A stretch of DNA of 64,000 nt. Origin: Verrucomicrobiota bacterium (GTDB taxonomy: Bacteria > Verrucomicrobiota > Verrucomicrobiia > Limisphaerales > UBA1100). Shown here one piece after another: positions 7,383 through 51,229 of this stretch (position 1 is the first letter of the stretch; every line of letters starts with the position of its first letter). The DNA is taken from the NCBI GenBank assembly GCA_028343615.1, contig JAOLZA010000002.1, positions 1,515 through 65,514 of the forward strand, read 5' to 3'. The translations under genes were made by a program, and so were the position numbers. The notes under the pieces were generated by a model. That model was not told the origin of the DNA. It worked only from the letters and a program-made list of their open reading frames with translations, and searched no databases.

Positions 7383-8063
7383 ATGTCACTGCTGGAAATC
7401 AGCGATCTCAGAAAAAGTTTCCGCACCCCCGAAGGTGAAACTCAGGCGGTGCTAGATATACCGTCCTTTTCCCTCGAGCGCGGTCAACAACTGGCACTGC
7501 GGGGTGCCAGTGGCACGGGTAAGACGACCTTGCTTAATTGTATCGCCGGCATTCTCAGTCCCACTTCCGGCATTGTGCGACTCGATGGCCACGACCTCGC
7601 CACCGCCAGCGAGCCCCAACGCGATGCCCTGCGCGCGCGTTGCATCGGCTATATTTTTCAAACCTTCAACCTGTTGCAAGGATACACTTGCATGGAAAAC
7701 GTGCTGCTCGGAATGAGCTTCGGGCGCGGGCCGGACACCGATGCTGCGCGCGGCTTACTCGATCGCGTGGGGCTCAACCATCGGCTACATCATCGCCCCG
7801 GCCAACTTTCCGTGGGCCAACAGCAGCGTGTGGCTGTGTCGCGTGCGTTGGCCAATCAACCATTGCTCGTCTTGGCCGATGAACCCACCGGCAATCTTGA
7901 TCCCCAAAACGCGCGCGAGGCGTTGCAGCTCATCCGCGAAGTGTGCGAGGAAAGTGCCGCCGCATTGCTCATCGTGAGCCACGACCCGATGGTGCTCGAT
8001 CAATTCGACGATTGTCAGGATTTGGCTGAGTTAAACCACGCTGCGCAGGAGGTGTCCGCATGA
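7383..8063 (+). CDS. ABC transporter ATP-binding protein (LolD/MacB-like)
   Basis: Walker A GASGTGKT, signature LSVGQQQRV, Walker B LADEPTGNLD. Confidence 0.95.
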   Translation: MSLLEISDLRKSFRTPEGETQAVLDIPSFSLERGQQLALRGASGTGKTTLLNCIAGILSPTSGIVRLDGHDLATASEPQRDALRARCIGYIFQTFNLLQGYTCMENVLLGMSFGRGPDTDAARGLLDRVGLNHRLHHRPGQLSVGQQQRVAVSRALANQPLLVLADEPTGNLDPQNAREALQLIREVCEESAAALLIVSHDPMVLDQFDDCQDLAELNHAAQEVSA

Positions 8064-9295
8064 CGTGGTGGATGATTATCCGCAACAGCCTGCGGCAACA
8101 CGCACTCTCCACCGCCATCACTGCGCTGAGCATCGGCCTGGGCGGCGGGCTATTGATGGCGATTTGGGTGGTAAATTTCCAATCACAGCGCGCGTTCAAG
8201 AATGTCACCGGAGGCTTCGACGCCATCCTTGGCCCGCGCGGATCCGAAACTCAATTGGTGCTCAACAGCCTTTTTCATATGGATTCCTCGCCCGGGCTCA
8301 TCAACCATGCCGATTATGAAACTTTCCGTAAAAGCCACAAACGCTTTTACCGCAACGCCGTGCCGATTGCCGTGGGTGATAATTTTCAGGGCTACCGGAT
8401 CGTGGGCACCACGCACGATTTGTTTGCCGCCGAGCATTCGCCGGGCGAACCGTATGCGCTAGCGGCGGGTGAATATTTTATCCGCAACGAAAAGCAGTGG
8501 AATAAAGAGGCGGTAATCGGTGACACTGTGGCGCGCAAACTCGGCTGGCGCGTGAACCAAAAATTTAGTCCGTATCACGGCCTGAACTTTATTGAAGGTC
8601 AGGAACCGCACAAGGATAAATACACCGTGGTGGGAATCTTGCGCCCCACCGGTACGCCTGCCGATCAAGTGATTTGGATTCCCATTGAAGGCCTGCAACA
8701 AATGGATGGACACGATGCGCAATTTGCCGGCGATGTGAGCGCCGTGCTCATTCAGCTTAGCACTAACACCACCGCACGCGCCTTCGGAATGAATAGGCTC
8801 AACGCAATTTACAACAAAGATTCCGATCACTTGACCTTTGTGAAATCCACCGCCGACGTCGTGGCGCGACTGTTCGACCGGTTAGGTTGGGCGGAAAAAG
8901 TACTGCGTTGGGTGGCACTCCTCGTGGCCGTGGTGGCGGCGGGCTCAGTGCTCGCGAGCATTTACAACACGATGAACGAACGCCGACGTGAGTTTGCTAT
9001 CCTACGTGCATTGGGCGCGGGACGCGACACTGTATTCGGAGTCATCGTACTCGAGAGTGCCACCATTGCTATCATGGGCGCGTTGATTGGATTTGCTGTG
9101 TACACTGGAATTATGTTTGCCGCGGAGAGCATCCTGCGTAATGAAATCGGCGTCACCCTCCATCCCTTCGAACAGCACCCCGTGATGGTCATTGTGCCTG
9201 TGGGACTGGTGATGCTTGGCGTGGTGGTGGGTATTATCCCCGCACTAAAAGCCTACCGTACCGAAGTAGCTGAAAACCTCATCCCTCAAAGTTAA
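8060..9295 (+). CDS. ABC transporter permease, MacB/FtsX family
   Basis: N-terminal TM, periplasmic domain, ERRREFAILRALGA motif and three C-terminal TMs; ATGA overlap with the ATPase gene. Confidence 0.92.
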   Translation: MTWWMIIRNSLRQHALSTAITALSIGLGGGLLMAIWVVNFQSQRAFKNVTGGFDAILGPRGSETQLVLNSLFHMDSSPGLINHADYETFRKSHKRFYRNAVPIAVGDNFQGYRIVGTTHDLFAAEHSPGEPYALAAGEYFIRNEKQWNKEAVIGDTVARKLGWRVNQKFSPYHGLNFIEGQEPHKDKYTVVGILRPTGTPADQVIWIPIEGLQQMDGHDAQFAGDVSAVLIQLSTNTTARAFGMNRLNAIYNKDSDHLTFVKSTADVVARLFDRLGWAEKVLRWVALLVAVVAAGSVLASIYNTMNERRREFAILRALGAGRDTVFGVIVLESATIAIMGALIGFAVYTGIMFAAESILRNEIGVTLHPFEQHPVMVIVPVGLVMLGVVVGIIPALKAYRTEVAENLIPQS

Positions 9296-9314
9296 AATGA
9301 AAAAATATCTAAAA

Positions 9315-9791
9315 ATGAAAAACTATATCCTATTTCTATTGTTGGCTGCCACGCTTGGTTGTGGCAACAGCCACGACCATAATCACGATCACCACGGCCA
9401 CAGCCACGGCGATGGTCATGGCCATCAAGCACCGCATGGCGGCGTGCTGGTAAATGTGGAAGATGAGTTTTGCCATCTAGAATTCGTTCAGGAACCCGGC
9501 ACAACACGCCTACAAATGCATGCCCTTCGTTTTCACCCACGCGAAGCACCGGTGAAATTTTTCATGGAAAAAATCGAGGCCACCGCCGCAGTAAATGGCG
9601 AGGTAAAGACGTTCACCTTCCGTCCCACCCAATTGGATGGCATTACCGCCACCACCGATCCCACCTCCCTTTACGTTGCCGAAATCGACTGGCTGAAAGA
9701 CACAACTATCTCCACCGGCATTCTCACAGAGTTGAAAATTGAGGGCAAAACGCTATCAAAAATAACTTTCCAATTTCCCAAAAAGGATTAA
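9315..9791 (+). CDS. His-rich lipoprotein, putative metal-binding/chaperone
   Basis: Lipobox LGC then HDHNHDHHGHSHGDGHGH and APHGG motif; alternative start 9297. Confidence 0.8.
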   Translation: MKNYILFLLLAATLGCGNSHDHNHDHHGHSHGDGHGHQAPHGGVLVNVEDEFCHLEFVQEPGTTRLQMHALRFHPREAPVKFFMEKIEATAAVNGEVKTFTFRPTQLDGITATTDPTSLYVAEIDWLKDTTISTGILTELKIEGKTLSKITFQFPKKD

Positions 9792-9801
9792 ACTATTGTT
9801 A

Positions 9802-10527
9802 ATGAAAATTTGGCAGGCAATTCTTTGGGCAACACTGGCGGGCGTGGCCGGTTGTGGCCATCAATCGCCGATTCAATCCAACGTGATCGTGGAACGTGGC
9901 GAAGTAGTCTTGCGCCAGCCATCAGCACCAGATAAGCCATTTATAGAGGAGGTAGCTGTGCCTACGGCACCGATAATCGCCAAGCCGGAACAACCGCTCA
10001 TCGCCGGTACATCCCCGATGGAGAAGCCCGTACAGAATCCAGAAGCCGCTAAACCCGTGCCACCGCCGGCGGAATTGGCTCAGCCAGTCAATGAGATGAT
10101 TGGTGATTATGTGCTCGTCCATTTTGACAAGCTTGCGGATTTTGCCTACGAGGTACCCGATGATCCCATCACCGACCCCAAGGCCAAGGCGATCATCGAG
10201 AAAAATATTATTCCCAAGGCGGTTACTGATTTTCACAAAAAGAAAATTGCACTGAAGGGCTTCATGCTTCCGCTTAAGGTGGAAGGCGGCAAGATTACCG
10301 AGATGCTGATCATGCGTGATCAATCTATGTGCTGCTACGGCACTGTGCCCAAGATCAACGAGTGGGTCAGCGTACGCATGCCCGAGGGCAAAGGTGTGAA
10401 GCCTATTATGGATGTACCCATCACCATCTTCGGAACGCTCAAGGTTGGCGAAGTATTGGAGAACGGCTACCTCGTTGGCATCTATGAACTGGATGGCGAC
10501 CGCCTTGGCGGACCAATTGACCTCTAA
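9802..10527 (+). CDS. DUF3299 family lipoprotein
   Basis: Lipobox AGC; KGFMLPL...CCYGTVPKINEWV...PITIFGTL pattern typical of DUF3299. Confidence 0.82.
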   Translation: MKIWQAILWATLAGVAGCGHQSPIQSNVIVERGEVVLRQPSAPDKPFIEEVAVPTAPIIAKPEQPLIAGTSPMEKPVQNPEAAKPVPPPAELAQPVNEMIGDYVLVHFDKLADFAYEVPDDPITDPKAKAIIEKNIIPKAVTDFHKKKIALKGFMLPLKVEGGKITEMLIMRDQSMCCYGTVPKINEWVSVRMPEGKGVKPIMDVPITIFGTLKVGEVLENGYLVGIYELDGDRLGGPIDL

Positions 10528-11163
10528 TCAATCAACCCGCCACACCCGCAAATCATCCACTGCAATCGGTGTCCCTGAAAATGGTTGGCCCCAAACGGTG
10601 GCGCGGCCGGCGAGTGGCTCCACACTTTCTGTCCAAAAGAGCTGCCACTCTTTCGGCTCCAATTCACTATTGTGCCATATCTTGGCCATCAGCCTCCATT
10701 TTAGACCCGGTAGTGACTGAATTTGTAAAGTCATGTGTGTCCAGTTTCCGGGCACCCATGTATGATTTATTTCGTGCACAAGCACATCATTTCGAAAAAG
10801 TTTCAACTTTTTTTGGCCAGGACTCACCATCACGCGGAAACCGCTGATGCCATTGAGTCCCAAACCAAATTCAGGAAACTGTCGCCTCTTCGACTCAGCC
10901 CGAAACCGCGCGTCTACTCGTAGGTTATCGAGTAACGCCGGGCCAAACATCACCCCGTGCAATTGCAACGGCTCGGCCGGCAAACGTAGTGCACCGTCAA
11001 CGACAGTGACTTCGCCGTTGAGTTCAATCCAGCTTTTAGGCAATGCGGTGGACTGAAAATTTGCCCGCACCAGCGGAGTTAAATTGGCATCCGTGCGCGG
11101 CTGCGGCATCACGCAGGCGGAGAGCAGCAAGGCAAGCAAAGGCAAAAAAATCCAACGCGTCAT
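10528..11163 (-). CDS. Hypothetical lipoprotein, probable concanavalin/DUF1080-like beta-sandwich
   Basis: Lipobox LSAC after MTRWIFLPLLALL; beta-rich sequence ending AVDDLRV. Confidence 0.7.
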   Translation of the reverse strand: MTRWIFLPLLALLLSACVMPQPRTDANLTPLVRANFQSTALPKSWIELNGEVTVVDGALRLPAEPLQLHGVMFGPALLDNLRVDARFRAESKRRQFPEFGLGLNGISGFRVMVSPGQKKLKLFRNDVLVHEINHTWVPGNWTHMTLQIQSLPGLKWRLMAKIWHNSELEPKEWQLFWTESVEPLAGRATVWGQPFSGTPIAVDDLRVWRVD

Positions 11164-11169
11164 GGCCGG

Positions 11170-11198
11170 AGTGTAGTCGCCCATTACTCGTTGCGCAA
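11170..11198 (-). promoter_or_regulatory. Sigma70-like leaderless promoter for the lipoprotein gene, overlapping the permease 3' end
   Basis: Minus strand TTGCGC-17 nt-TACACT-6 nt-ATG(11163). Confidence 0.55.
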
Positions 11199-14100
11199 TG
11201 CCGGCAATAATTTTCCACGCAGGGCGGCCACGGCGGCGAGCCATGTCCAAAGCAGTCCACTAAGCAAAATGCCGCCCACCGTCCACGCAAGCAATTTCAG
11301 TGGCATCCCTTGGCCGGGGTTGCTGAGCGCCGGCCAAATCGCGACGGCCGCACTGATGATACCGCCAACCAAGCCCAGAACCAACAGCCCACCGTGCTCG
11401 GCCAGCACCAGCCAATGCAGTGCGGGTTTTCGGAAGCCCACCGCCGTAAGCAACGCCAGTTCGCCGCGTCGTTCAAGCACGTTACGCAACACCACTACGC
11501 CGAGGCCCACACTTCCAAGCAGCAGCGCTAGGCCACCGAGCGCTTGGAAGATGTCGAGGTACGTGTTTTGTACTTGGCTGAACTCCGCCAGTCGTCGCGT
11601 GGCGGGCGTCAGCTCGAGGGCGTAATCCTCAAGCGTGTATTTTAAATGTTCCCGCGCTTCCCACATGGCAAATTCGATTGGACATTCGTCCTGAAACCCT
11701 TGCTTTAACTTTGCATATGTATTGCCATCAACTTTACCCTTCTTATTCGCATCTTCAAGTTCATCGATTTTTTCAAGCACGCTGATGTCACCCGCATTAT
11801 TCGGCCAATCAATCAGAAACACACGATACCCGCTGGCGGAGGGGAAGTGTTTCACGAATTGTTTTTCGGAAATGATGAGATCGCCCTGCAGCACGGAGTT
11901 GGCAAGGAATCCGGCGATGCGGATTTTGAAAGTACCCCCGGATTCATTGGGGTAATCGATGACATCGCCCACCTTCACGTGCAGCATCCACATGCCGGTG
12001 TTCATATCCACCACAGCCGGCACAGCATCGCCTTCAGATGTATTAAGCACTTCCCAGCCCGTGCCTTCGGCGAAGGTGAACGCCTTTTTCTCCTCCAGTG
12101 ATTTTGGATTCACCCCGAGCAATCGAGGTTCGCGGGTTTGATTGAGGTTCAGGCAACTCGCATCATCGCCCGCGCGCACCCGAAACTGCACAAGGCTCTT
12201 AGCGGGAATCTTATCGCCATCAAGCACCATTTCCTCGCGGCCTTTTTTGGTGTTCAAATCATACAACACCGGAACATCGCTCTGGCCAAAGTAAGCAAAC
12301 CCCCCGGTGCCACTCCAGCGCTGCCCTGCGCCTTCGTTGGGATCCAACCGGAACGCACCCACCGCAATCAGTAAGAACACCCCGCACGCCAGCAGTCCAA
12401 TGCAGGCAAGGCTGCGCCCGCGCCGACGCGCGCTACCGCGCCAACCCATCACGCTCAGCGAGGCAAAAGATGCGCCGCCGCCCGTCGCAAGTTTGGCTAA
12501 CCACACGTGGCACACGCACAGGAAACTGACAAGCAGCAGTATCCCCGCGCCAAAAAATCCACCCGCCTTCATTTGCCCATGCGCATCTTTCATCGCAAAC
12601 CCAAGCGCAATCGCGCCCACGGCACAAATGAGCGCGGTCAAGAGCGCCTTGAGTCCCGCCTTGGTCGTAGCGAGGGGAGCCGTTTGGCCTTGAATGAGCG
12701 CGATGGCATTGGCGCGGCTGAACTTGCGGACAGTCAGCCAAATGGTGAACAACGCCACGAACAAACCGCCAAGCACGCCGTACAGCACCGTGAACGGTTC
12801 GGCGTGGTACACAATGTTGCCGTTGCCGATGGCGCCGCCCCAATCCGAATTGAGGAGGCTAACAAGTGACCGTGTGTACGCTAACCCTGCCCAACCGCCG
12901 AGCAACGCACCGAGCAATGCGAGCACGAAGCCTTCGGCGAGGAGTAGGTTGCGAATCGTTTTACCGGTGAAACCAATGGCAAGCAGCGTGCCGATTTGGG
13001 GCGCGCGCTGTTCCACTCCGAAGACGAAAAGGAGGCCCATCAAAATGAGCGCGGCGAGCACGAGGAAAAAACTGAGCCCAATAAACAGCCCTCCGAAATC
13101 GCTGGCGGATTGGCCGGTGATCGCTTCGGTGCGCACATCGCGGAACACGAGGCCGATTAGTGCTGGATTGATTTTTTCTTTAAGCGAGAATTCGATTTGG
13201 GCGCGTTTCCTTTTGGCGGAAGCGAAACGCACCGTGGTGGCTTCCCCGTAGCGGTTGGCCCAAAGTTTTTGACCGGTAGCCAGCGCGACAAAGGCTTTTG
13301 GGGTGCCGCGATGTTGTTTCCAATATTCCTCGTCTTGGTCGCGGATGCGGCTGGAAACAACGCCGATACCGGGATTCCAGTCGCGCAGATTATCTTTGTC
13401 CACTATGCCGGGAAAGTTGGGCATTAACTCGCGCCAACCTGGCTCTTCCGTGGGCACGATACCGGTGACGGTGAAGGTGTGCGGGTGCTCTTCCAACTGC
13501 CGGTTGAGGCCGAGCACATAATAATTTACTTCAATTTTGTCACCGACTTTTGCTCCGAGGTCATCCTTGAGCCATTGGGTGATAAGCATCTCATCGCCTG
13601 TGGGTGTGTTCTTAAAAAATCCCTCGCTCACGCCGGCAATCATCGAATATGGAACGGCATTCGTGCCGATGCGAAATTCGTTGGCAATGTACGTGAGCGC
13701 CGTTTGGGAATCGTCAGTGGCTTTCAGCGTGTTGGCATCGAGAAAAATACGGTCGGTGCGAAGGTCGATGACGTTATCTTTCCCATTTTCAATTAGCATC
13801 AATTCTGCATCCGCCAATCGCCACTCCTTTTTTATTTTAGCATTGGCCGATCGCACCAATTCCTTCGTCGGTATCAGCCCACTCGCAAGCATGGCGTTGG
13901 CGCGGTTGGTCAGATCGGATTTTTTTTGCAGCCACGCAAGTGGTACGAAAACATTGAAGGGTGGCACGGCGTTGGGGCGCAGACTGAAGTTGGCTAACTC
14001 AGAATCCTCATCGGTTACTTTGGCGACAGTGAGCGTCAATCGCGCGGTGAGGTTTTCGGCCACCGAGAGTGGGGCATCGCGCGGGAGCACACTTGGCTTG

Positions 14101-14570
14101 GCAATGCGTAGGCTGAATTCATCGCCGGCCTTGAGTCCAAGCTGTGCGGCAAGGACCCGATTGATGAGGGCTTCGCCATCCTTCAAAGTTGGCGGTCGGA
14201 TTGATTTTAGCCGGGCGTGTCTCCAAAACGAATCGTCGATGCCTATGAGTTGGATTTGATTGGCGCGTTTTTTTGTGTCCGTGACATATCCGGCGGCGTT
14301 CAATTTGAGAATCGGAGCAAAATGCGTTTCGTCATCGAGATCTATGGCGTTTGCCAGGTCCGCACGAAAGAATCGATCGTGCTGCACAAGTGCAGCTTGG
14401 ATGTGGCCAAGGCGTTGTTCGGCTTGGTTTTGAAGCGTTCTCTTCACTGAATCGCCGATTACCAACGAACCGGTTAACACCGCGCCGGCCACGATGGCAC
14501 CGAGCAGCGTGCCCAAGTGCGAGCGTGCGTGATGCGTGAGGCTGTTGAAAATGAGTCGGCCGAAGGTCAT
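11184..14570 (-). CDS. Large duplicated FtsX/MacB-family ABC permease
   Basis: 1128 aa, two repeats each with EQRAPQIGTLLAIGF / ERRGELALLTAVGF motif and TM bundles. Confidence 0.92.
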   Translation of the reverse strand: MTFGRLIFNSLTHHARSHLGTLLGAIVAGAVLTGSLVIGDSVKRTLQNQAEQRLGHIQAALVQHDRFFRADLANAIDLDDETHFAPILKLNAAGYVTDTKKRANQIQLIGIDDSFWRHARLKSIRPPTLKDGEALINRVLAAQLGLKAGDEFSLRIAKPSVLPRDAPLSVAENLTARLTLTVAKVTDEDSELANFSLRPNAVPPFNVFVPLAWLQKKSDLTNRANAMLASGLIPTKELVRSANAKIKKEWRLADAELMLIENGKDNVIDLRTDRIFLDANTLKATDDSQTALTYIANEFRIGTNAVPYSMIAGVSEGFFKNTPTGDEMLITQWLKDDLGAKVGDKIEVNYYVLGLNRQLEEHPHTFTVTGIVPTEEPGWRELMPNFPGIVDKDNLRDWNPGIGVVSSRIRDQDEEYWKQHRGTPKAFVALATGQKLWANRYGEATTVRFASAKRKRAQIEFSLKEKINPALIGLVFRDVRTEAITGQSASDFGGLFIGLSFFLVLAALILMGLLFVFGVEQRAPQIGTLLAIGFTGKTIRNLLLAEGFVLALLGALLGGWAGLAYTRSLVSLLNSDWGGAIGNGNIVYHAEPFTVLYGVLGGLFVALFTIWLTVRKFSRANAIALIQGQTAPLATTKAGLKALLTALICAVGAIALGFAMKDAHGQMKAGGFFGAGILLLVSFLCVCHVWLAKLATGGGASFASLSVMGWRGSARRRGRSLACIGLLACGVFLLIAVGAFRLDPNEGAGQRWSGTGGFAYFGQSDVPVLYDLNTKKGREEMVLDGDKIPAKSLVQFRVRAGDDASCLNLNQTREPRLLGVNPKSLEEKKAFTFAEGTGWEVLNTSEGDAVPAVVDMNTGMWMLHVKVGDVIDYPNESGGTFKIRIAGFLANSVLQGDLIISEKQFVKHFPSASGYRVFLIDWPNNAGDISVLEKIDELEDANKKGKVDGNTYAKLKQGFQDECPIEFAMWEAREHLKYTLEDYALELTPATRRLAEFSQVQNTYLDIFQALGGLALLLGSVGLGVVVLRNVLERRGELALLTAVGFRKPALHWLVLAEHGGLLVLGLVGGIISAAVAIWPALSNPGQGMPLKLLAWTVGGILLSGLLWTWLAAVAALRGKLLPALRNE

Positions 14571-14654
14571 GCGATGAGAGGGGGATGTTCTGTCTTACTC
14601 CATTTCATTCGGGAGATTTGGGTCGAGGTGAAACTCGTCCCCCCCTTGGAGTTA

Positions 14655-15341
14655 TTAGGCAATCTGGCCATCTTTGAGTTCCACGGTGCGGGCCATTCGG
14701 CCGGCGAGTTTTGCGGAGTGGGTGACGGTGATAAGGGTGACGTTTTCCTCGGCGTTCAATTCCACGAGCAATTGACCGAGCTGGTCGGCGGTGGTTTGGT
14801 CGAGTGCGCCGGTGGGTTCATCGGCTAGCAGAAGTTGGGGTTTGTTGATGAGCGCGCGCACCACAGCCACGCGCTGGCGTTCGCCACCAGAGAGTTGGCT
14901 GGGCCGATGCGAAAGGCGTTCGCCGAGTCCCACACGATTGAGGAGGTGACGAGCGCGTTCTTCTTCTTCGTTGGTGGCACGTCCGTGGGCGAGCGTGGGC
15001 ACGAGCACGTTTTCGATCACCGTGCATTGCGGCAGCAGATGATGGTTTTGAAAAATAAATCCCATCTCGCGATTGCGCAGAAGGGCGAGTTCATCGTCAT
15101 TTAAAGCAATGAGGTCGCGCCCATCAAAAGCGATCGCGCCATCGGTCGGTTGGTCGAGGGTGCCGATGAGATTAAGCAACGTGCTCTTGCCGCAACCGGA
15201 GGGGCCAATGATGGCAATGGATTCACCGCGCGCCACGTCCATCGACAAGCTGCGCAACACCTCCAACGGCGTGCCGCCCTCGGTCGAGGGAAATTCGCGA
15301 GAAATATTTTTTAGCTGGAGCAAAGAAGTGGCGTTTGTCAT
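14655..15341 (-). CDS. ABC transporter ATP-binding protein (LolD-like)
   Basis: GPSGCGKST, LSGGERQRV, LADEPTGALD. Confidence 0.95.
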   Translation of the reverse strand: MTNATSLLQLKNISREFPSTEGGTPLEVLRSLSMDVARGESIAIIGPSGCGKSTLLNLIGTLDQPTDGAIAFDGRDLIALNDDELALLRNREMGFIFQNHHLLPQCTVIENVLVPTLAHGRATNEEEERARHLLNRVGLGERLSHRPSQLSGGERQRVAVVRALINKPQLLLADEPTGALDQTTADQLGQLLVELNAEENVTLITVTHSAKLAGRMARTVELKDGQIA

Positions 15342-15344
15342 GAG

Positions 15345-16613
15345 CTATTCTTTTATCCAGCGGTTGGCTTTGAGTTCGAAGCGCGGGAGGGATTCGGGAG
15401 GCACGGTTTCAACGGGGACACGAAGGTTGAGTTGGGTGCGAATGGTTTCGATTATTTGTTCACCGAGTGTTTTTGGGTCGGTGTCGGGTCGAGGTTCGAT
15501 ACGGAGGCGCAGTTCGGCCATTTCGGTTTTTTTAGAAATGATTACTTGGTATTCGGCAATGGCTTCGAAGGGGCGGAGGATGTGTTCAAAGGCACTGGGA
15601 TAAATATTGACACCTCGGATGATGACCATATCGTCCGCGCGGCCAAGGATGCCACCGCGAAGGATGATGGCGTCGCGGTGGGTCTCGGGGCGCCCGAGGT
15701 CACCGGTGCGGTAGCGGATCAAGGGCATCGCAGTGCGGGTGAGGGTGGTGAGGATGAGTTCGCCTTCCTCGCCGTCGGCGACAGGTTGGTCGGTTTCGGG
15801 GTGAATAATTTCGGCGAAGTAGGCGGCGTCGATGATTTGCAGATTATTTTTTTCGTGCGGCCACTCGTGGGTGACGGGGCCAACTTCAGTCATTCCATGA
15901 TGATCGAAAACTTTTGCGTTGGGCCAAGCGTTCTCGATGCGTTCGCGCGTAGCGGGGATGCTGCCGCCCGGCTCGCCGGCGACGATGATGGTTTTGAGTT
16001 TAGCGCGCGAAAGGTCGATGTCTTCAAGTTTTGCAACTTCCGCCAAACGCAGTGCGTAAGTGGGGGTGCAGCAAAGGAGGGTGACTTCGTTTTCTAACAG
16101 GATGCGCAGGCGCGTGGTGCTGGTGAGGCCGCCACCAGGAAAGCAAAGGCAACCCATTTGCGTGGCGGCTTCGTAGGCCATCCAAAATCCAATGAAGGGG
16201 CCAAAAGAAAATGCGAACAGCGCGCGATCGGTCGGTGAGACGCCGGCCGCACGATAAACCATTTGCCAACTTTCGAGCATACTTTGCCAGCTCTCGGGCG
16301 TGTCGAGCCAGCGGAGGGGTTGTCCGGTGGTGCCGCTGGTTTGGTGGATGCGATTGTATTGATCGATCGGGAAAGAAAGATTCGTGCCGTAGGGAGCGTG
16401 GGCGGTTTGATCTGCGACGAGTTCGTCTTTGGTGGTGAAGGGACAGTGCTCGGCGAAGTCATCGAGGCTGGCAATAGAGTCATTGATGCCCGCCGCGTTC
16501 AGTTTGTTTTCGTAAAACGCATTGGCGGGGCGTACCGCACGAATGAGGGAGCGGAGTTGCTCAAGCTGTTGGGCGCGGATAGTTTCCCGACCGGTTGAAG
16601 GCGCATCGGCCAT
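15345..16613 (-). CDS. Phenylacetate-CoA ligase family (aryl-CoA ligase)
   Basis: TSGTTGQP, HHGMTEVG, RYRTGD, GRADDMVIIRGVNIYP motifs of the PaaK family; start MADAPST. Confidence 0.9.
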   Translation of the reverse strand: MADAPSTGRETIRAQQLEQLRSLIRAVRPANAFYENKLNAAGINDSIASLDDFAEHCPFTTKDELVADQTAHAPYGTNLSFPIDQYNRIHQTSGTTGQPLRWLDTPESWQSMLESWQMVYRAAGVSPTDRALFAFSFGPFIGFWMAYEAATQMGCLCFPGGGLTSTTRLRILLENEVTLLCCTPTYALRLAEVAKLEDIDLSRAKLKTIIVAGEPGGSIPATRERIENAWPNAKVFDHHGMTEVGPVTHEWPHEKNNLQIIDAAYFAEIIHPETDQPVADGEEGELILTTLTRTAMPLIRYRTGDLGRPETHRDAIILRGGILGRADDMVIIRGVNIYPSAFEHILRPFEAIAEYQVIISKKTEMAELRLRIEPRPDTDPKTLGEQIIETIRTQLNLRVPVETVPPESLPRFELKANRWIKE

Positions 16614-16617
16614 GAAA

Positions 16618-17172
16618 TTATTTGGCTTCCCCGCCCTCTTCTGGGGCGATTTGCGTGGTGGGCTTGGTGTCCGCTCCCGTGTTTGAGGGTGCGTATTTTG
16701 CGACCAAGAATGCCCCGCCTGCGGCAAGCAGGCAGCCCACGATGAACAGCGGCGGCAATGACTTGAGGCCGTCCTTGGGCGGATGCAGCGCCATGGCGGT
16801 GACGGTGTTGACCAAGGGTGCGCCGGCAAACACAATCGGCATCACCGCTGCAGCGGCTGCTGCAGCAAAGATTGGCGAGGCTTTGCCTAGCGAAAGCACT
16901 AATGCAAACGCGCCGATCGCGCCGGCGATGCCCGCCACGAGGCTCCAAGTCACGCCGCCACCGGTTAAGCTCCAGTCAGAGCCGCGCATTTTGATGACCA
17001 CCGCCGCGACAACCCCGATGATGGCGTACGCGATGCAGACGAACAGAAACGCCTTGAGGCTCGCGTGCGGCGCTTCAGAGCCCATCGGCATTTCGCCGCG
17101 CGCCTTGTGAAGAATCACGCCGTAAATTCCCCAAGAAAAAACGGTGAGTAAAGCCCAGTAAAGCCAGGTCAT
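16618..17172 (-). CDS. Small integral membrane protein, EamA/DMT-like
   Basis: About five hydrophobic helices; VMPIVFAGAPLVN; alternative start 17199. Confidence 0.75.
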   Translation of the reverse strand: MTWLYWALLTVFSWGIYGVILHKARGEMPMGSEAPHASLKAFLFVCIAYAIIGVVAAVVIKMRGSDWSLTGGGVTWSLVAGIAGAIGAFALVLSLGKASPIFAAAAAAAVMPIVFAGAPLVNTVTAMALHPPKDGLKSLPPLFIVGCLLAAGGAFLVAKYAPSNTGADTKPTTQIAPEEGGEAK

Positions 17173-17241
17173 GCTGGTGGTGGATGTTTGTACGACCATA
17201 ATATTTGTGATGTTAGTTTTTGGGTTAAGTTGCTTTAAACA

Positions 17242-17673
17242 TTAATCGGTCAATTTATCCGCCGGTGCGGACTCAATGAGGTTGGCAATTTCAGGTGGGA
17301 TGGTGATGGCTTTCATTTCTCCGGTTTCTGTGCGGTGCACGCAGACGACTGTGAATCCGCCACACGCGACTTCCTTGCCGTCGACACGAAAACAAAATTG
17401 ATAAGTGATGGATTTGCTAGTCTTTGCGCTGACGAGTAAATGAATTCCCACTTCATCTTCAAATTTCAGTGGTTTTTTGAAATCGCAATGGCTGTTTACG
17501 CGCGGCCAGCCGATATCGAGGTCGTGATCTACAATCGACCGCCCAAGCGAGCGGAAGAATGCGTGTTCAGCGTATTCCATATATCGATAAAAATTCGCGA
17601 AATGAACAATGCCGGCCGCATCGGTTTCGCTGAATTCAACGCGGCGAGTGATGGTGAATTCGTGCTGTGCCAT
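17242..17673 (-). CDS. Acyl-CoA thioesterase (4-hydroxybenzoyl-CoA thioesterase/YbgC hotdog family)
   Basis: RVEFSETDAAGIVHFANFYRYME signature. Confidence 0.92.
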   Translation of the reverse strand: MAQHEFTITRRVEFSETDAAGIVHFANFYRYMEYAEHAFFRSLGRSIVDHDLDIGWPRVNSHCDFKKPLKFEDEVGIHLLVSAKTSKSITYQFCFRVDGKEVACGGFTVVCVHRTETGEMKAITIPPEIANLIESAPADKLTD

Positions 17674-18966
17674 TTATACCTTTGTGGTTAATTTAACGAA
17701 CAACGCGGCCATCTCGGTGGCCATTCGATCAATGGAAAATTGGTTGCGCACGACCTCTCGCGCCTTGAGGCCGATGGCTTTGGCTTTGGTTGGATTGTGC
17801 AGCATTTTTTCGATGGCGGCGGCGAGGTTTTCTGGCTCGTCGTGTTTATAGCACACGCCGCCGCTGGTGGCTTCCACCAATTCCGGAAACGACGCGCACT
17901 GCGGCTGTACCACCGGCACGCCCGCGGCCATCGCCTCGATGATATAAAACCCAAACGACTCACCAAACTGCGCGGGCACGGACAGTACGGAAAGCGATTT
18001 CAAAAAATCCTGTTTCGCCGCGCGGGTGAGGTTGGGGTGGAGCTCCACATCGCCCAATAACGCTTTCGCGTGCAGTCGCGCGCGCATCTTCTCAACGAAG
18101 GGCTCGTCCATCGGCCGGCAGCCGCCGCCAATTTTCAGGCGTAGTTGTGGAATGGAATTACTGGTCTTGAGCTTGATGAAGGCGTCTATGAGCGTGTCGA
18201 GGCCTTTGTCTTTGCACAGTCGGGCGAAGAAACCGAGGACCGGCGGATTCGGTGCCACGGGTTCGGCGGTATAGCCGGCGTGGCTGATACCGTTGTGGAT
18301 TACGTGCACGCGATCGTCGGTCAAGTTCAGTTTACTGCGCATCAGTGCCGCGTAAAATTCGCTGGGCGCAATGAAGCATTCCACCTCGGCCGCGCGTTCG
18401 GTCATCAATTCCCAAACCGACCGGCGCAAGCCCTCCGCCATGTTGTCGATGTACGGTGCTTCATTTTGCAGTAGGCAAACCACTGGCGCACCGAGCGCTT
18501 CTTTGAGCTGCCGCGCCAGTCCGAGCAGCATCGAATTGGAAAGGCAAATGACGTCCGGCGTCGGCTGGGTTTTCAGCCAGTCGATGAGCTGCGTCAACTC
18601 GCGCGCTTGATGGCCGTCTTCGCCGCGCAGCATCGAGAGAGTGATTTCGCCGACGTCCTCGGCATTCGTTTTCCCCATTTTACTGGCGGCCAAATGCAGG
18701 AGGCGTTCCGACCCCACCAGGCGATGCACCCAATTAGGTGCGTTGCGATAGAACGGCGACTTCTGTTCTAAATAAACATTCACGCCATTATAAAAAATCG
18801 GCGAGCCATCCGATTGGTTTTCCTCATCTAACATCATTGGGAGGTACAGCGGAACCATCGTTACCTCATGTCCGTCTTTACGCAAAGTCGCCACTAGAGC
18901 GTTATCACGGAAACAGTTTCCGCAATACATATTGCCCGCACCGGGGGTGATTTGGAGAATGTTCAC
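17674..18966 (-). CDS. Glycosyltransferase family 4 (GT-B)
   Basis: VIHNGI, KDKGLDTLIDAF, ESFGFYIIEAMAAGVPVV; GTG start overlapping upstream TGA (GTGA); N-terminal YCGNC motif. Confidence 0.92.
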   Translation of the reverse strand: MNILQITPGAGNMYCGNCFRDNALVATLRKDGHEVTMVPLYLPMMLDEENQSDGSPIFYNGVNVYLEQKSPFYRNAPNWVHRLVGSERLLHLAASKMGKTNAEDVGEITLSMLRGEDGHQARELTQLIDWLKTQPTPDVICLSNSMLLGLARQLKEALGAPVVCLLQNEAPYIDNMAEGLRRSVWELMTERAAEVECFIAPSEFYAALMRSKLNLTDDRVHVIHNGISHAGYTAEPVAPNPPVLGFFARLCKDKGLDTLIDAFIKLKTSNSIPQLRLKIGGGCRPMDEPFVEKMRARLHAKALLGDVELHPNLTRAAKQDFLKSLSVLSVPAQFGESFGFYIIEAMAAGVPVVQPQCASFPELVEATSGGVCYKHDEPENLAAAIEKMLHNPTKAKAIGLKAREVVRNQFSIDRMATEMAALFVKLTTKV

Positions 18967-20216
18967 GGGAGAGGTTCGCCTAGAGGCAGGGAATCTGGAA
19001 CGGGACAAAAATCTTCGATGCATTTGAACATTTTTGAAAAATCTTTATTCACGTCACCCGATAAGCAATCGGTGACATCACTGGCGATGTCGGGGTGTTT
19101 TTTGACCAGTTCGCCGAAGCTGAAATTTTCGTTGTAGAAGGCGTAGCAAAGTTTGCGCATGTTTTCGATGCCTTCGCGGAGGTGGGTGGCGTATTCGGTG
19201 AAGCGTTCCGGGGAAAGGTCGTTGGCTTCGAAGGCTTCGTGGGCGGCGTCGGCTGCCATCACGCCGCTCTTGAGGGCGAGCATGAGGCCGCTGGAAAATA
19301 CGGGGTCGAGGAAACAAAAGGCATCACCGAGCAGCAATAGGCCGTGCGTGCCGCAATGGCGTGAGTGGTGGGTGAATTCGTTTGTAATATAATAATCTCC
19401 GGATTGCGTTGCAGGTGCGAGGTTGTCTTTTACCCATTGATTATTTGCAATCTCGCGCTCAAGCATGGCTTTTGGATCGCGCACGCCGTCGCGGCTGAGG
19501 TATTTCCCCTCAGCCACCATGCCCACGCTGGTACGGTTGTCGTGCAGGGGGATCCACCAAAACCAGCCTTTTTCCGGAACAAACGCCACACCAGTCGCAC
19601 CTTCGTCGATGCCATTCTGCCGGACTGCACCTCGGTAATAGGTCCATACGGCTACTTTGTTAAGATATGGATCACGCTCACGCCAGCCGTTGCGTGTAGC
19701 GGTTAGCGCTTCCTTTCCGGTGGCGTCAAAGGTAAGTGGTGCTCGAAATTCCTGTTCCTTACCGGACTTCGTAACAGCGTGTACTCCAACCACTTTCTTG
19801 CCTTCCCAGATGAGTTTCTTAACTGTGATTTCTTCGATCACTTCCGCACCCTTTTCACGGGCGTTTTCCATCAGCATTTGATCGAACTCCGCGCGCATGA
19901 CCTGCCAAGTCTGGGCAACAGTATTGCGGTCATAACGATCGAAGAAATAAAAAGGCTGACTTGCCATGCCGTCGGGAGATACGAACTGTACGCTGAACTT
20001 TTTGACGAAGGCTGATTCCTTCAGTCGATCGATCATCCCCAGCCGCTTCAACGGCTGGTAGGTGAAGGGAATAAGTGATTCGCCGATGTGATAACGTGGG
20101 AATTTTTCACGTTCGAGCATTAGTACGCGGTGGCCATGCTCAGCCAGAATGGTGGCTGCCGAGCTGCCAGCAGGACCCGCGCCGATGATGAGGGCATCGT
20201 AAGTGTTAGTATCCAT
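18963..20216 (-). CDS. Flavin-dependent halogenase-like oxidoreductase
   Basis: GAGPAG FAD motif, FPRYHIGES, FVKK (candidate catalytic Lys), WFWWIP (WxWxIP), GDAFCFLDPVFSSG. Confidence 0.85.
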   Translation of the reverse strand: MDTNTYDALIIGAGPAGSSAATILAEHGHRVLMLEREKFPRYHIGESLIPFTYQPLKRLGMIDRLKESAFVKKFSVQFVSPDGMASQPFYFFDRYDRNTVAQTWQVMRAEFDQMLMENAREKGAEVIEEITVKKLIWEGKKVVGVHAVTKSGKEQEFRAPLTFDATGKEALTATRNGWRERDPYLNKVAVWTYYRGAVRQNGIDEGATGVAFVPEKGWFWWIPLHDNRTSVGMVAEGKYLSRDGVRDPKAMLEREIANNQWVKDNLAPATQSGDYYITNEFTHHSRHCGTHGLLLLGDAFCFLDPVFSSGLMLALKSGVMAADAAHEAFEANDLSPERFTEYATHLREGIENMRKLCYAFYNENFSFGELVKKHPDIASDVTDCLSGDVNKDFSKMFKCIEDFCPVPDSLPLGEPLP

Positions 20217-20219
20217 CCA

Positions 20220-20792
20220 CTATTCTACCACATGAGATGCTGGAGGCAAAATCTCAACGATTTCTGCCAAATGATTTCCGTTCAGATTGCGGTGAATATT
20301 ACAGCGACCGTACAGTTCAGTAGAATCGGGTAATCCCAATGCCTCTGTGATGAGCGGATCAGAGTTTACCCGGAAATATGCTTGTGGACAGCTTTGGTGT
20401 AGTATGGTGTGATCTGCAAGGATGGTGCCAAGCGGCACGCTTTCGCCGAGAATCGATTCGCGCGCGGCTTCAGGGAATTGCTCGAGATGAATTGTAATCG
20501 CGCCAAACTCCACCGGGCGATTTTTATCGCCTGCTTCGAGGATGACCTCGCGCGTGTAAGCGGTTTCGGTTACCTCGCGGTTAACCATCCGCAGGTGAAT
20601 GCGTGCACCGTGAAAATGCTCAAGCGTGGGCGTCATATCATCGGCGTGAACGAGCAATTTTCGAAAAGGCTCGGGCATATCCGCGCCGTCGATGGGCAAC
20701 AGCTCGGGTGGGGCGACGCCGCCGCGTTGATAAAAATCGAGCAGAGGCTTCGCAGCGTCGTGCAGGGAAAGTGTAGGTGCGGGAGTGGACAT
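20220..20792 (-). CDS. Chorismate-lyase (UbiC/UTRA)-fold protein
   Basis: LLVHADDMTPTLE...REVIL...PVEFG...VPLGTIL...EIVEIL pattern resembling chorismate lyase/DUF98; TGATG overlap with the radical SAM gene. Confidence 0.65.
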   Translation of the reverse strand: MSTPAPTLSLHDAAKPLLDFYQRGGVAPPELLPIDGADMPEPFRKLLVHADDMTPTLEHFHGARIHLRMVNREVTETAYTREVILEAGDKNRPVEFGAITIHLEQFPEAARESILGESVPLGTILADHTILHQSCPQAYFRVNSDPLITEALGLPDSTELYGRCNIHRNLNGNHLAEIVEILPPASHVVE

Positions 20793-22132
20793 CAGGCGTA
20801 GCGTGCGTTGCGGTGTTCGGGCAAAAAGAATTCGTGCAGCAACCGGTCGACCTGCAAAAGGCCTTCGCGGTTGATACGCACGGTGTCACCGTCGATATTG
20901 AGGTAGCCCCATTCCTTGATGCGTCGGAGCGGTTCCGCGAAACGTTGTTGTGGATTCACGCCAAATTTTTTCTCAAAATAATTCAAACTTACTGAGCCCA
21001 ACTTGAGCTGCAAAATAAATTCACGAACCAGTCGCTCGTCATCGTTCGGTGTCAACGCGCGATGGATGGGTAACTCGCCGGCATTCACGCGCTCCACGTA
21101 CGGGTCGAAATCGTGATGGTTTTGATAATGCACACCGCCGATGTGGCCGAAAGATGCCACACCCAATGAAAGCAAATCGGCACCGGCCCAGAGTTGGTCG
21201 CGGTATTCGAAAGTAGTTTTTGCCTTGTCTTTCACCGCTGTATACGCGCTGCCGATAGTGTAACCGGCGGCTTCAAACTCGGCAAAGGCGTAATCTGTCC
21301 AGCGGCGTTTGGTTTCCCAATCGGCTACTGGTGCGCTGAGTTTTCCGTCCTCCTGCATCCGTTTGTAAATGGTGGTGTTGTATGGCACTTCCATTTGATA
21401 AACCGTCACGCTGTCGGGTGACATCTCGATGGTCTTGGCCACGCACGCCTTCCAGTTATCCTCCGTTTCATCGAGCATCCCCGCGATGAGATCAATGTTG
21501 ATTTGCGGGAAGCCCACTTCACGCGCAAAATTATAGGCGCGGTCAATCTCGCCTCCGCGATGTGCGCGGCCGTTAATTTCCAAAATGTGGTCATCAAAAT
21601 TCTCAACACCCAAGCTCAGCCGCGTGACGCCCACCTCGCGAATAATTTTCAGCTTCGCATCCGTCAATGTCCCCGGCTCGCACTCAAACGTCACCTCCTC
21701 CACCGCATCCCACGGCAGCAACGCCTTCATGCCATCGGTGAGATGTCGCAATTGTTTGGTGGAAAGATAACTCGGTGTGCCGCCGCCAAAATAAACAAAG
21801 CGAGGAGTGCGTTCGCCGATGAATGGTTTGCGCGCGTAAATCTCCAACTCTGTCAACGTGGCGTCGAGATAGTTTTTGATCGCCGCCGAATCCTTGTCTG
21901 TGTACACGCGAAAATAACAAAAGTGACATCGCTTGCGGCAAAACGGAATGTGTAAATAAAGCCCCAGCGGCGTTCCGTTGAAGGGGGGCTGCTCCATCGC
22001 ATCAATCACCTCCGGCACCGCATCCGTTTGCCAAAAAGAAAACGGGGGATAGTTCGAGACAAAATAATTGCCCACGGTCGTCTGGGTTTCCAGCTGCGGC
22101 TTGGCCGAGGATTCAGAGGGTGCGGTGCTCAT
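20792..22132 (-). CDS. HemN-like (class C) radical SAM enzyme
   Basis: LYLHIPFCRKRCHFCYF (CxxxCxxC), YFGGGTPS, RLSLGVE, INIDLIAG; ATGA overlap with upstream gene. Confidence 0.92.
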   Translation of the reverse strand: MSTAPSESSAKPQLETQTTVGNYFVSNYPPFSFWQTDAVPEVIDAMEQPPFNGTPLGLYLHIPFCRKRCHFCYFRVYTDKDSAAIKNYLDATLTELEIYARKPFIGERTPRFVYFGGGTPSYLSTKQLRHLTDGMKALLPWDAVEEVTFECEPGTLTDAKLKIIREVGVTRLSLGVENFDDHILEINGRAHRGGEIDRAYNFAREVGFPQINIDLIAGMLDETEDNWKACVAKTIEMSPDSVTVYQMEVPYNTTIYKRMQEDGKLSAPVADWETKRRWTDYAFAEFEAAGYTIGSAYTAVKDKAKTTFEYRDQLWAGADLLSLGVASFGHIGGVHYQNHHDFDPYVERVNAGELPIHRALTPNDDERLVREFILQLKLGSVSLNYFEKKFGVNPQQRFAEPLRRIKEWGYLNIDGDTVRINREGLLQVDRLLHEFFLPEHRNARYA

Positions 22133-23238
22133 TTCTTTTTTGTGCCGAGGCAATACAACGTGCCGTCCTCGCTGCCGATGATTATTTTTCCGTCCACCAC
22201 CGCCGGCGAAGCCGTGATGCTGTCCTCTGTTTCAAAACTCGAAAGCAGTTTGCCATCCTTTAGCCGCACGATGTATAGCCGCCCATCATTCGATCCCACA
22301 ATCACCTTGCTGCCGCACACCACCGGCGAACTATTCACCTGTCCGCGCGTGCTGAAGGTCCACACTGCTTTGCCGTTATCGCGTCGCACGCAGTGCAGTC
22401 GTTTGTCTTCGCCGCCGAATAGCACGCGGTCTTTTGTGAGCGCTGGTGAGGACGAATAAGGGAACAGTCGGTCCTTATATTGCCACACCACTTTCTCCGA
22501 TTTGAGGTCGATGCACAAAAACGCGCAGTCGTGATGGCCCACATACGCACGCCCGTCTTCTGCGGCGATGCTGCCAATGATGTGAGACTGTGCATCAATG
22601 GATTTGTCGCGCTTGCCCTTGGCAATGTCGATGATGTGCAGCATCGCATCGCAGCCGCCAAACATTGTGCGGCCATTGCTCAATGCTGGCGAGCCATTCA
22701 CATAATTTTCCGATTCGTATTCCCAAATCTTTTTGCCGGTCTTCGCATTGAGGCAATAAAGAAAAAAATCGTGGCTGCCGATAATGATGTAGGTTTGCTT
22801 GCCATCGGGACTTTTGGTCCAATTCGGTCCACCGGTGATTTGGTCGCCCGTTTCATATTTCCAAATCTCCTTACCGGTCTTTGCGTTCAACGCAAAAAAC
22901 ATTCCAAAGCTGTTACCGAAAAAAACTCGTCCGTCCAAAAACAAGGCTGGCGCTTCAATGGGTTCTTTTGCATCAAACTCCCAAAGCTTTTTGCCATCGG
23001 CCAAATTCAGCGCATAAAATTTCCCATCATCAGCGCCAAAATAAACACGTCCATCGCCTACTACGACAGAAGCTCTCACTGGTTCATTGGCATCAAATTT
23101 CCATAGCACCGCTGGTTTATCCGGCACCGCCCCCGCAGCTACGCCGGTGAGACCGCGATTGCCCCGGAAAATAGGCCAATCCGCCCCGCACAACATCGGT
23201 GCGAGCAGAATGATAAAGGTTAGAATCCAGTGTTTCAT
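22129..23238 (-). CDS. PQQ-like/BamB-type beta-propeller repeat protein, secreted
   Basis: Signal peptide, DWPIFRG, repeated LNAKTGKEIWKY / SSPVV..G.VIVGS.DG units. Confidence 0.9.
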   Translation of the reverse strand: MKHWILTFIILLAPMLCGADWPIFRGNRGLTGVAAGAVPDKPAVLWKFDANEPVRASVVVGDGRVYFGADDGKFYALNLADGKKLWEFDAKEPIEAPALFLDGRVFFGNSFGMFFALNAKTGKEIWKYETGDQITGGPNWTKSPDGKQTYIIIGSHDFFLYCLNAKTGKKIWEYESENYVNGSPALSNGRTMFGGCDAMLHIIDIAKGKRDKSIDAQSHIIGSIAAEDGRAYVGHHDCAFLCIDLKSEKVVWQYKDRLFPYSSSPALTKDRVLFGGEDKRLHCVRRDNGKAVWTFSTRGQVNSSPVVCGSKVIVGSNDGRLYIVRLKDGKLLSSFETEDSITASPAVVDGKIIIGSEDGTLYCLGTKKK

Positions 23239-23400
23239 AGTGGGAAACGTCCTTCAATGGACGTGAACCGCTCCATTCGCTTTCAGAAAACATCCTCCAA
23301 AATCAGGCAAAATGCAACGCAAAAAGTACGTGAACGTATGGTATTGCCCCTTTTTAAACTTCCCTTGCTGCCTTGGGAATTTAGTATTAAAAAAAAGCCC

Positions 23401-41503: not shown

Positions 41504-41572
41504 TGACGATTGGTAGCAATAAATCAGATCAAAAATCTTCTTAATTTTCTTTTAAATATTTCTCCCCCCGCC

Positions 41573-49961: not shown

Positions 49962-50012
49962 AATTTGGAGAAGCGGTAGCTTGAGGCTTTTCAAGTCTTC
50001 AGGCAACTCATT

Positions 50013-51141: not shown

Positions 51142-51229
51142 AAAAATATTACTTAAGATTTAATCTAGTCTGCAAAACTCAAAATTGCTTGTTTATTTTG
51201 ATTAATTGATTTAGACAAAATGGCTCTAA

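Follow-up and report, generated by a model that had tools for sequence, protein, structure and literature searches.

A co-inherited eleven-gene operon of Verrucomicrobiota that may build and export a halogenated 4-hydroxybenzoate derivative

The window analyzed here is a 64,000-nucleotide (nt) stretch of DNA on contig 42 (JAOLZA010000002.1) of a Verrucomicrobiota metagenome-assembled genome (MAG) that is 59% complete and whose nearest records to the window are marine MAGs. It carries eleven head-to-tail genes on the minus strand, running from 23238 to 10528. We propose, with moderate confidence, that this operon builds, modifies, and exports a compound derived from 4-hydroxybenzoate, which would be halogenated, modified by a one-carbon (C1) unit, converted to a coenzyme A (CoA) thioester, and glycosylated. 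Direct support comes from the families to which the genes belong, from one protein that has the UbiC fold together with its binding residues, from the halogenase motifs of a second, and from the co-inheritance of the genes; from these we infer each chemical step. Below, g01 to g11 are the operon genes in 5'-to-3' order, and G and L numbers denote genomes and loci of the comparison set.

22129..23238, minus strand: g01, secreted beta-propeller of the eight-blade type (BamB/PQQ-repeat-like), 369 amino acids (aa), N-terminal signal peptide (Pfam PQQ_2, 7e-38; Beta-prop_ACSF4, 7e-57)
20792..22132, minus strand: g02, HemN-like radical S-adenosylmethionine (SAM) enzyme, 446 aa, candidate class C C1-transferase (Pfam Radical_SAM, 1e-21; HemN_C, 9e-8)
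20220..20792, minus strand: g03, UbiC-fold protein, 190 aa, predicted chorismate pyruvate-lyase (AlphaFold2, Foldseek, and hhalign)
18963..20216, minus strand: g04, flavin-dependent halogenase, 417 aa, short CndH/PltA-like type (Pfam Trp_halogenase, 2e-29)
17674..18966, minus strand: g05, GT4 glycosyltransferase, 430 aa (Pfam Glycos_transf_1, 2e-25; Glyco_transf_4, 3e-12)
17242..17673, minus strand: g06, hotdog-fold acyl-CoA thioesterase of the YbgC/4HBT type, 143 aa (Pfam 4HBT_2, 4e-11; 4HBT, 2e-9)
16618..17199, minus strand: g07, five-helix membrane protein resembling drug/metabolite transporters (DMT/EamA-like), 193 aa, candidate inner-membrane exporter (weak EamA match, 0.0015)
15345..16613, minus strand: g08, PaaK-family adenylate-forming aryl/acyl-CoA ligase, 422 aa (Pfam AMP-binding and AMP-binding_C_2)
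14655..15341, minus strand: g09, LolD/MacB-type ATP-binding cassette (ABC) ATPase, 228 aa (Pfam ABC_tran, 8e-37)
11184..14570, minus strand: g10, duplicated FtsX/MacB-type permease with large periplasmic domains, 1128 aa (Pfam FtsX in two stretches, 5e-19; MacB_PCD, 4e-10)
10528..11184, minus strand: g11, secreted lipoprotein with a concanavalin-A-like lectin beta-sandwich, 218 aa (lipobox LLSAC; AlphaFold2 and Foldseek)
23239..23390, no strand: intergenic region between g01 and the divergent dprA, presumed to hold the operon promoter

Fold, motifs, and family of the core enzymes

The AlphaFold2 model of g03, built with 34 homologues (predicted local distance difference test [pLDDT] score, 93.6), adopts the alpha+beta fold of UbiC and UTRA domains. 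Foldseek matched it to AF1396/DUF98 (E, 6e-8; template modeling score, 0.75), to GntR UTRA domains, and to Escherichia coli UbiC (1g81; E, 1.5e-4). When the 34 homologues were aligned with E. coli UbiC by hhalign, at a probability of only 42%, Met53, Arg81, Leu121, and Glu180 of g03 fell on Met34, Arg76, Leu114, and Glu155 of UbiC. In a docking study of the E. coli enzyme, 4-hydroxybenzoate is hydrogen-bonded by Arg76 and Glu155 and by backbone groups of Met34 and Leu114 (PMC7879144). In this alignment g03 therefore keeps all four contacting positions, and among its homologues Met53, Arg81, and Glu180 are invariant, while Leu121 is at least 90% conserved.

A profile search of g03 against PDB sequences returned only a weak DUF98 match (E, 0.017). 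The Chor_lyase and Rv2949c-like Pfam models matched nothing in the window's whole genome, and both matched control genomes. Given the low hhalign probability and the lack of a Pfam match, g03 would represent a divergent branch of the UbiC fold that keeps the product site. Some of its relatives have been named chorismate-pyruvate lyase by JGI. The preliminary description of this DNA had ascribed a chorismate-lyase fold to the protein, and the Foldseek match to UbiC and the four retained residues agree with it; g03 is predicted to be a chorismate pyruvate-lyase that makes 4-hydroxybenzoate. Separately, the UbiC-like gene of G330 (G330:C30:54325-54864; L003/L011) contains one in-frame TGA in the six-frame match, which could be a sequencing error, a pseudogene, or the consequence of a differently placed start or stop.

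The flavoenzyme g04 scored 103 bits against the Pfam Trp_halogenase model (cut-off, 21). Nine of its ten best-ranked PDB entries are halogenases, namely 8zop (8e-63), CndH 3e1t (5e-56), PltA (1e-48), 5buk, ChlB4, CmlS, 5bul, 5bva, and RadH; the tenth, 3nix, was deposited only as "flavoprotein/dehydrogenase." Of the features that we take to define such halogenases (a GxGxxG motif for flavin adenine dinucleotide, WxWxIP, and an active-site lysine), Gly12/Gly14/Gly17, Lys73, and Trp218-Phe-Trp220-x-Ile222-Pro223 are invariant in 33 of 33 orthologues, and Lys73 aligns with a lysine of 8zop. Literature searches found no paper on PDB entry 8ZOP. The protein falls far short of the CmlS equivalog (203 bits; cut-off, 900), so orthology to CmlS is not indicated. 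Short halogenases such as CndH and PltA usually act on carrier-tethered substrates.

The third core protein, g02, aligned over its full length with HemN (1olt; 171 bits), and only its N-terminal half aligned with NocN (9p2u; 121 bits). It has the HemN_C domain and the radical SAM motif CxxxCxxC, in which Cys65, Cys69, and Cys72 are invariant. In contrast to HemN itself, g02 scored 188 bits against the HemN equivalog TIGR00538 (cut-off, 325) and has an invariant phenylalanine, Phe74, at the fourth cysteine of HemN ("fcyf" aligned with "fcgc"). The radical SAM enzyme of the system also fell below the HemN cut-off in all five complete genomes, and in G001 it coexists with a separate true HemN (576 bits). 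By these sequence features, g02 is HemN-like but not HemN. A review of HemN-like proteins describes class C enzymes as adding a SAM-derived methylene radical to sp2 carbons (PMC10114718). An electron-rich sp2 ring carbon, the expected substrate here, is the kind that class C enzymes attack, and this chemistry would fit a phenolic ring. We know of no class C enzyme that pairs with a chorismate lyase, and literature searches found no paper on such a pair.

Linkage and co-inheritance of the genes

Relatives of g03 numbered 451 in a protein collection and at least 487 in species-level genomes, the latter matched with one peptide pattern. In 88 related loci we counted each gene on the same strand as g03, and only where the flanking DNA sufficed. 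Linkage was nearly universal for the radical SAM gene (76/77) and frequent for the propeller (62/70) and halogenase (56/76) genes, followed by the GT4 (38/67) and thioesterase (32/65) genes and then by g07 (19/60), the ligase (19/54), the ATPase (17/53), the permease (15/46), and g11 (11/43). In the 76 loci the radical SAM and UbiC-like genes are adjacent, and in the 62 loci the propeller gene lies upstream of the radical SAM gene. The full ten-gene pattern was present in 13 of the 43 loci with enough flank on both sides. The arrangement is not due to chance. All-against-all clustering of open reading frames (ORFs) in the 88 loci revealed no further conserved neighbors beyond the eleven genes; the other recurrent clusters were antisense ORFs from crude gene calling.

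In a sample of 401 genomes of the phylum, g03, the halogenase (E ≤ 1e-90), and the radical SAM enzyme (E ≤ 1e-90) occurred in exactly the same 9 genomes, which belong to seven genera and to five families plus the window's own. Ligase orthologues (E ≤ 1e-116, at least 49% identity) were found in the same 9, and two further genomes held a 40-41% relative at 1e-80. In four genomes (G330, G123, G369, and G291) the halogenase, ligase, thioesterase, pump, and g11 genes lie on other contigs or 20 kb away, the halogenase of G291 being 20 kb upstream on the same contig. Since the same nine genomes hold both the core and the ligase genes, partial loci do not mean partial systems. Orthologues of the propeller and of the permease (34-42% identity to g10) were each present in 5/5 genomes checked, and in G158 the propeller gene adjoins the permease gene.

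Carriers reach beyond this sample. A ligase orthologue was found in 5/5 genomes reached via loci labelled Phycisphaeraceae, Bryobacterales, Abditibacteriaceae, or Proteobacteria; such MAG labels are unreliable, Klebsiella and Akkermansia being among those attached to some carrier loci. The g03 profile matched 23 of 181 genomes in the phylum of G401, and five of the 23 were inspected. G471, reached via a planctomycete-labelled MAG, has all eleven genes in the same order (37-65% identity). The radical SAM, UbiC-like, and halogenase genes are present in G413, and the propeller, radical SAM, and UbiC-like genes in G578; in G448 and G561 there is nothing but a distant UbiC-like gene. The preliminary description had predicted that the genes would co-occur in other genomes, as they do in the nine genomes and in G471. 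Its view of a single operon held for the conserved linkage but not for a strict operon, the genes forming a co-inherited system that is often dispersed over contigs.

Variant loci carry unrelated genes after the halogenase (Sel1, GT2, FtsK-like, TIG, and DUF1501). At two of them, L086 (11829-13914) and L090 (11911-13936), two adjacent GDP-mannose 4,6-dehydratase-domain genes follow the halogenase and replace GT4; this pair hints at a deoxyhexose in the product. In two genomes of family f14, the unlinked halogenase gene adjoins ABC-importer genes: at L115:8049-10810 an NMT1-like binding protein is encoded together with a permease and an ATPase, and at L117:11321-13800 an NMT1-like binding protein gene accompanies an ATPase-like match. 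The neighbors of the halogenase genes in split genomes (NMT1-type importer, YidC, and histidine kinase) followed no pattern.

Flavin halogenase pathways usually belong to patchy, strain-level secondary metabolism. Here, every carrier examined ties its halogenase firmly to a predicted chorismate lyase, an unusual HemN-like radical SAM enzyme, and an aryl-CoA ligase. The distribution is wide: matches came from at least 487 species-level genomes, and two phylum-level genome samples contain carriers. Because some carrier genomes are single contigs, cultured strains suitable for genetics may exist.

Operon layout, accessory proteins, and neighboring DNA

Direct reading of the sequence showed an overlap or a gap of no more than 4 nt at 7 of the 10 junctions, and the only larger gaps are 42 nt before g07 and 84 nt before g10. 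The genes meet as ATGA at g01/g02 (22129-22132), as TGATG at g02/g03 (20790-20794), as TAG, 3 nt, and ATG at g03/g04 (20216/20220), as GTGA at g04/g05 (18963-18966, with GTG the start of g05), and as TAA followed without a gap by ATG at g05/g06 (17673/17674); 4 nt separate g07 from g08 (16613/16618) and 3 nt separate g08 from g09 (15341/15345). Each overlapping or near-abutting junction listed in the preliminary description was found on rereading. The ten minus-strand ORFs described there also stand, but its operon was one gene too short, having missed the gene at 10528-11184. Given that the ATG of g11 overlaps the stop codon of g10 (TAATG) and that g11 is syntenic in relatives, we place the end of the unit at 10528 rather than 11184. 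For g02, g05, and g08 the longest ORF begins too far upstream; their coupled starts (22132, 18966, and 16613) agree with the orthologue alignments.

Three studies, with four RNA libraries among them, yielded contigs that cover portions of the operon (93-99% identity) and span four of its gene junctions, which is weak evidence of transcription because DNA carry-over is possible and the contigs come from close relatives. They leave several bins of the operon uncovered, which proves nothing. A scan for promoter and terminator consensus sequences gave no match above shuffled expectation.

The families proposed in the preliminary description were borne out throughout by Pfam, NCBIfam, PDB profiles, or AlphaFold2 and Foldseek. 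No operon protein reaches an equivalog cut-off, so all are better regarded as family members than as orthologues of characterized enzymes. The propeller g01 scored 143 bits against BamB TIGR03300 (cut-off, 285), and the thioesterase g06 scored 53 bits against TIGR00051 (cut-off, 69). PDB relatives of g05 are weak (best, 1e-10). The ligase g08 has the domain architecture of the PaaK family, and its closest PDB entries are 2-hydroxyisobutyryl-CoA synthetase (2e-53) and PaaK (1e-52); at 214 bits against PaaK TIGR02155 (cut-off, 646), it is not a PaaK equivalog. The ATPase g09 is an orthologue of neither LolD (TIGR02211, 267 bits; cut-off, 308) nor MacB (224 bits; cut-off, 966), since it falls below both cut-offs. 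With their FtsX, MacB_PCD, and ABC_tran domains, g09 and g10 together make up a MacB/LolCDE-type (type VII) ABC system; g10 also has a weak ADOP match. At the nucleotide level, none of the three closest relatives matches a stretch of ~170 bases in the C-terminal part of g10 (11636-11806), whereas the flanks of this stretch match at 80-93%.

Like g03, g11 matched no family in Pfam or NCBIfam. Its AlphaFold2 model, built with nine homologues (pLDDT, 85.9), matched legume-lectin, ERGIC-53 carbohydrate recognition domain, and CBM66 folds in Foldseek (7e-7 to 5e-5). The lipobox is carried in the window's clade, and g11 is syntenic in L014, L124, and others. A PADLOC scan of all eleven proteins gave generic ABC-ATPase matches only and therefore no link to defense.

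The sequence of g07 has five hydrophobic segments, and its Atlas neighbors are named DMT permease, which is a lead only. This gene is a cassette that has been replaced with precision: its flanks match the three closest relatives at 83-93% nucleotide identity, none of these relatives matches across window 16631-17203, and the match ends exactly at the gene borders. The g07 protein is only 35-38% identical to the versions in these relatives. The nearest versions (68-70%) occur in MAGs L056, L067, and L075, where the other system genes are only 42-75% identical to those of the window.

Upstream, the operon is bordered by dprA, which is divergent on the plus strand and starts near 23391 (Pfam DNA_processg_A, 3e-75). 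Downstream, a second, MacB-type ABC set on the plus strand (7383-10527) converges on the operon; it encodes an ABC ATPase, a 411-aa FtsX/MacB_PCD permease, a 164-aa protein without a family, and a DUF3299 protein with a lipoprotein-like N terminus. Elsewhere in the window, two low-GC stretches, 40001-42000 (0.47) and 50001-52000 (0.42), stand out against ~0.55 and may be acquired DNA.

Proposed route, alternatives, and known systems

In the route that we propose, g03 would convert chorismate to 4-hydroxybenzoate and pyruvate, and g08 would activate the acid as an adenylate or CoA thioester. The halogenase g04, supplied with reduced flavin by a reductase encoded elsewhere, would chlorinate or brominate the ring ortho to the hydroxyl, and g02 would place a SAM-derived one-carbon unit on an sp2 ring carbon. 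The thioester would be released or proofread by g06, and g05 would join the aromatic unit to a sugar. The product would then cross the inner membrane through g07, and the g09/g10 pump, together with the propeller g01 and the lectin-fold lipoprotein g11, would take it to the outer envelope or the medium. A sugar is probably involved, judging from the modeled lectin-type fold of g11 and the dehydratase pair in the two variant loci. That the route is complete, that g02 methylates or cyclopropanates, that g08 uses 4-hydroxybenzoate, and that the product is glycosylated remain inferences.

Several points weigh against this proposal. No Pfam or NCBIfam family matched g03 at E ≤ 0.01, including Chor_lyase (PF04345) and Rv2949c-like (PF01947), its hhalign probability with UbiC is low, and g08 lies far below the PaaK cut-off. 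The half of the operon from GT4 to the permease adjoins the core in only about one-third to one-half of the loci, and the nine positive genomes fall in only seven genera, so that the co-occurrence counts are not independent events. Since we know of no sequence discriminator between class C methylases and other HemN-like enzymes, the C1 transfer by g02 is a guess. No gene for a flavin reductase, carrier protein, acyltransferase, or sugar-nucleotide enzyme was found within the operon, and MacB-type pumps are not known to need a propeller or a lectin-like partner.

The genes can also be read as making something smaller. The three-gene core alone might produce a diffusible halogenated phenolic that acts as an allelochemical, such as 3,5-dibromo-p-anisic acid or bromophenols like those of the bmp pathway, with the GT4, ligase, thioesterase, and pump serving self-protection and export. 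A planctomycete producer of 3,5-dibromo-p-anisic acid does have adjacent chorismate-lyase-like and halogenase genes (baaA/baaB), the core often occurs without the other genes at the same locus (88 loci; e.g., L121), and the window comes from a marine organism with bromide available. However, orthologues of the ligase, permease, and propeller accompany the core through inheritance even where they are not linked to it, which would be unexpected of optional resistance genes; baaA/baaB lack genetic validation and resemble g03/g04 by description only; and g11 has no obvious role in the export of a small acid. We regard a diffusible phenolic as rather unlikely. A more elaborate product, an organohalogen decoration of the envelope, is conceivable but improbable. 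In that case, a SAM-derived methylene placed by g02 ortho to the phenol of halogenated 4-hydroxybenzoate would give a quinone-methide-type electrophile that is caught by a sugar hydroxyl, and the pump, propeller, and lipoprotein would place the aryl-glycoconjugate in the outer membrane; NosN-type enzymes, which form a CH2-O bridge, offer an analogy. If so, Verrucomicrobiota and Planctomycetota would share a conserved halogenated envelope component.

It is highly improbable that the cytoplasmic enzymes instead supply the secreted propeller with a new cofactor or ligand of aromatic, quinone-like nature. The g01 gene does overlap the radical SAM start and is linked in 62/70 loci, its product matches PQQ-repeat profiles, and g04 is weakly similar to the quinone-cofactor maturases QhpG and LodB. 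At 369 aa, however, g01 has the size of BamB and none of the long loops that PQQ dehydrogenases have, BamB is the profile it matches best, the dehydrogenase models match short stretches only, and the halogenase motifs of g04 are invariant. In G158 the propeller gene lies beside the permease gene and not beside the enzyme genes, and such a cofactor would leave no role for GT4, the ligase, or the thioesterase. Slightly more remote still is a role in the catabolism or detoxification of aromatic acids, which would pass from an aryl-CoA ligase through a thioesterase to efflux, with the radical SAM enzyme a heme-related HemN/HemW paralogue. Pairs of a PaaK-type ligase and a hotdog thioesterase occur in phenylacetate and 4-chlorobenzoate catabolism, and the radical SAM enzyme of the system is the genome's best HemN-model match in 4 of 5 complete carriers. 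Yet that enzyme falls below the HemN cut-off in 5/5 genomes, coexists with a true HemN in G001, and occurs in the phylum sample only in genomes holding g03; the operon encodes no ring-attacking oxygenase, reductase, or dehalogenase; and an enzyme of the chorismate-lyase type serves biosynthesis, as does a halogenase. A pathway to a new, ubiquinone-like quinone (UbiC with a UbiH-like flavoenzyme and a MenK-like methylase) was considered and rejected because the motifs of the halogenase do not vary and no linked prenyltransferase gene is present.

To the preliminary description this analysis adds a residue-level test of g03, co-inheritance at the genome level, the eleventh gene and its fold, the identical eleven-gene order in G471, and the finding that the carriers checked have orthologues of the propeller and permease at other loci. 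Identification of the product would uncover a natural organohalogen source that is widespread in sea water, lakes, and soils, as well as a first function for a large orphan branch of HemN-like enzymes and the cargo of a MacB-type pump with propeller and lectin-like partners. Having no core synthase, the system would be missed by rule-based cluster finders.

Literature searches found no published pathway with this gene set, as the preliminary description had supposed. Mycobacteria make p-hydroxybenzoic acid derivatives and phenolic glycolipids with the chorismate lyase Rv2949c, FadD22, and glycosyltransferases. As proposed here, a UbiC-fold lyase makes 4-hydroxybenzoate that is adenylated, glycosylated, and exported to the surface or medium. 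In contrast, g03 does not match the Rv2949c-like Pfam model, and the mycobacterial system, which uses polyketide synthases and SAM methyltransferases, is not known to have a halogenase or a radical SAM enzyme.

The nearest described case is baaA/baaB, followed by bmp, and neither is known to have a radical SAM enzyme, a CoA ligase, a GT4, or a MacB-type pump. As would be the case here, the bmp pathway of marine Pseudoalteromonas (PMC10579414) halogenates chorismate-derived 4-hydroxybenzoate with a flavoenzyme encoded beside the lyase. Bmp6 is the chorismate lyase, and Bmp5 is a single-component flavin brominase/decarboxylase of another flavoprotein family than g04; the pathway also includes a P450 coupling enzyme and carrier-protein chemistry. 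As described by their authors, baaA and baaB of Planctomycetales strain 10988 are the proposed 3,5-dibromo-p-anisic acid genes, not validated genetically, through which chorismate would yield 4-hydroxybenzoate for ring halogenation; the locus went undetected by antiSMASH, and the needed O-methyltransferase was not found there (bioRxiv 10.1101/723874). Compared by that description only, baa shares with our operon a UbiC-like lyase gene beside a flavin-dependent halogenase gene and a host in the Planctomycetes-Verrucomicrobia-Chlamydiae superphylum but differs in that the description mentions neither a radical SAM gene nor genes for a ligase, a GT4, a pump, or a propeller. The trait common to bmp and baa, adjacent lyase and halogenase genes, is seen here as a 3-nt gap in the window and as a same-strand halogenase gene at 56 of 76 loci.

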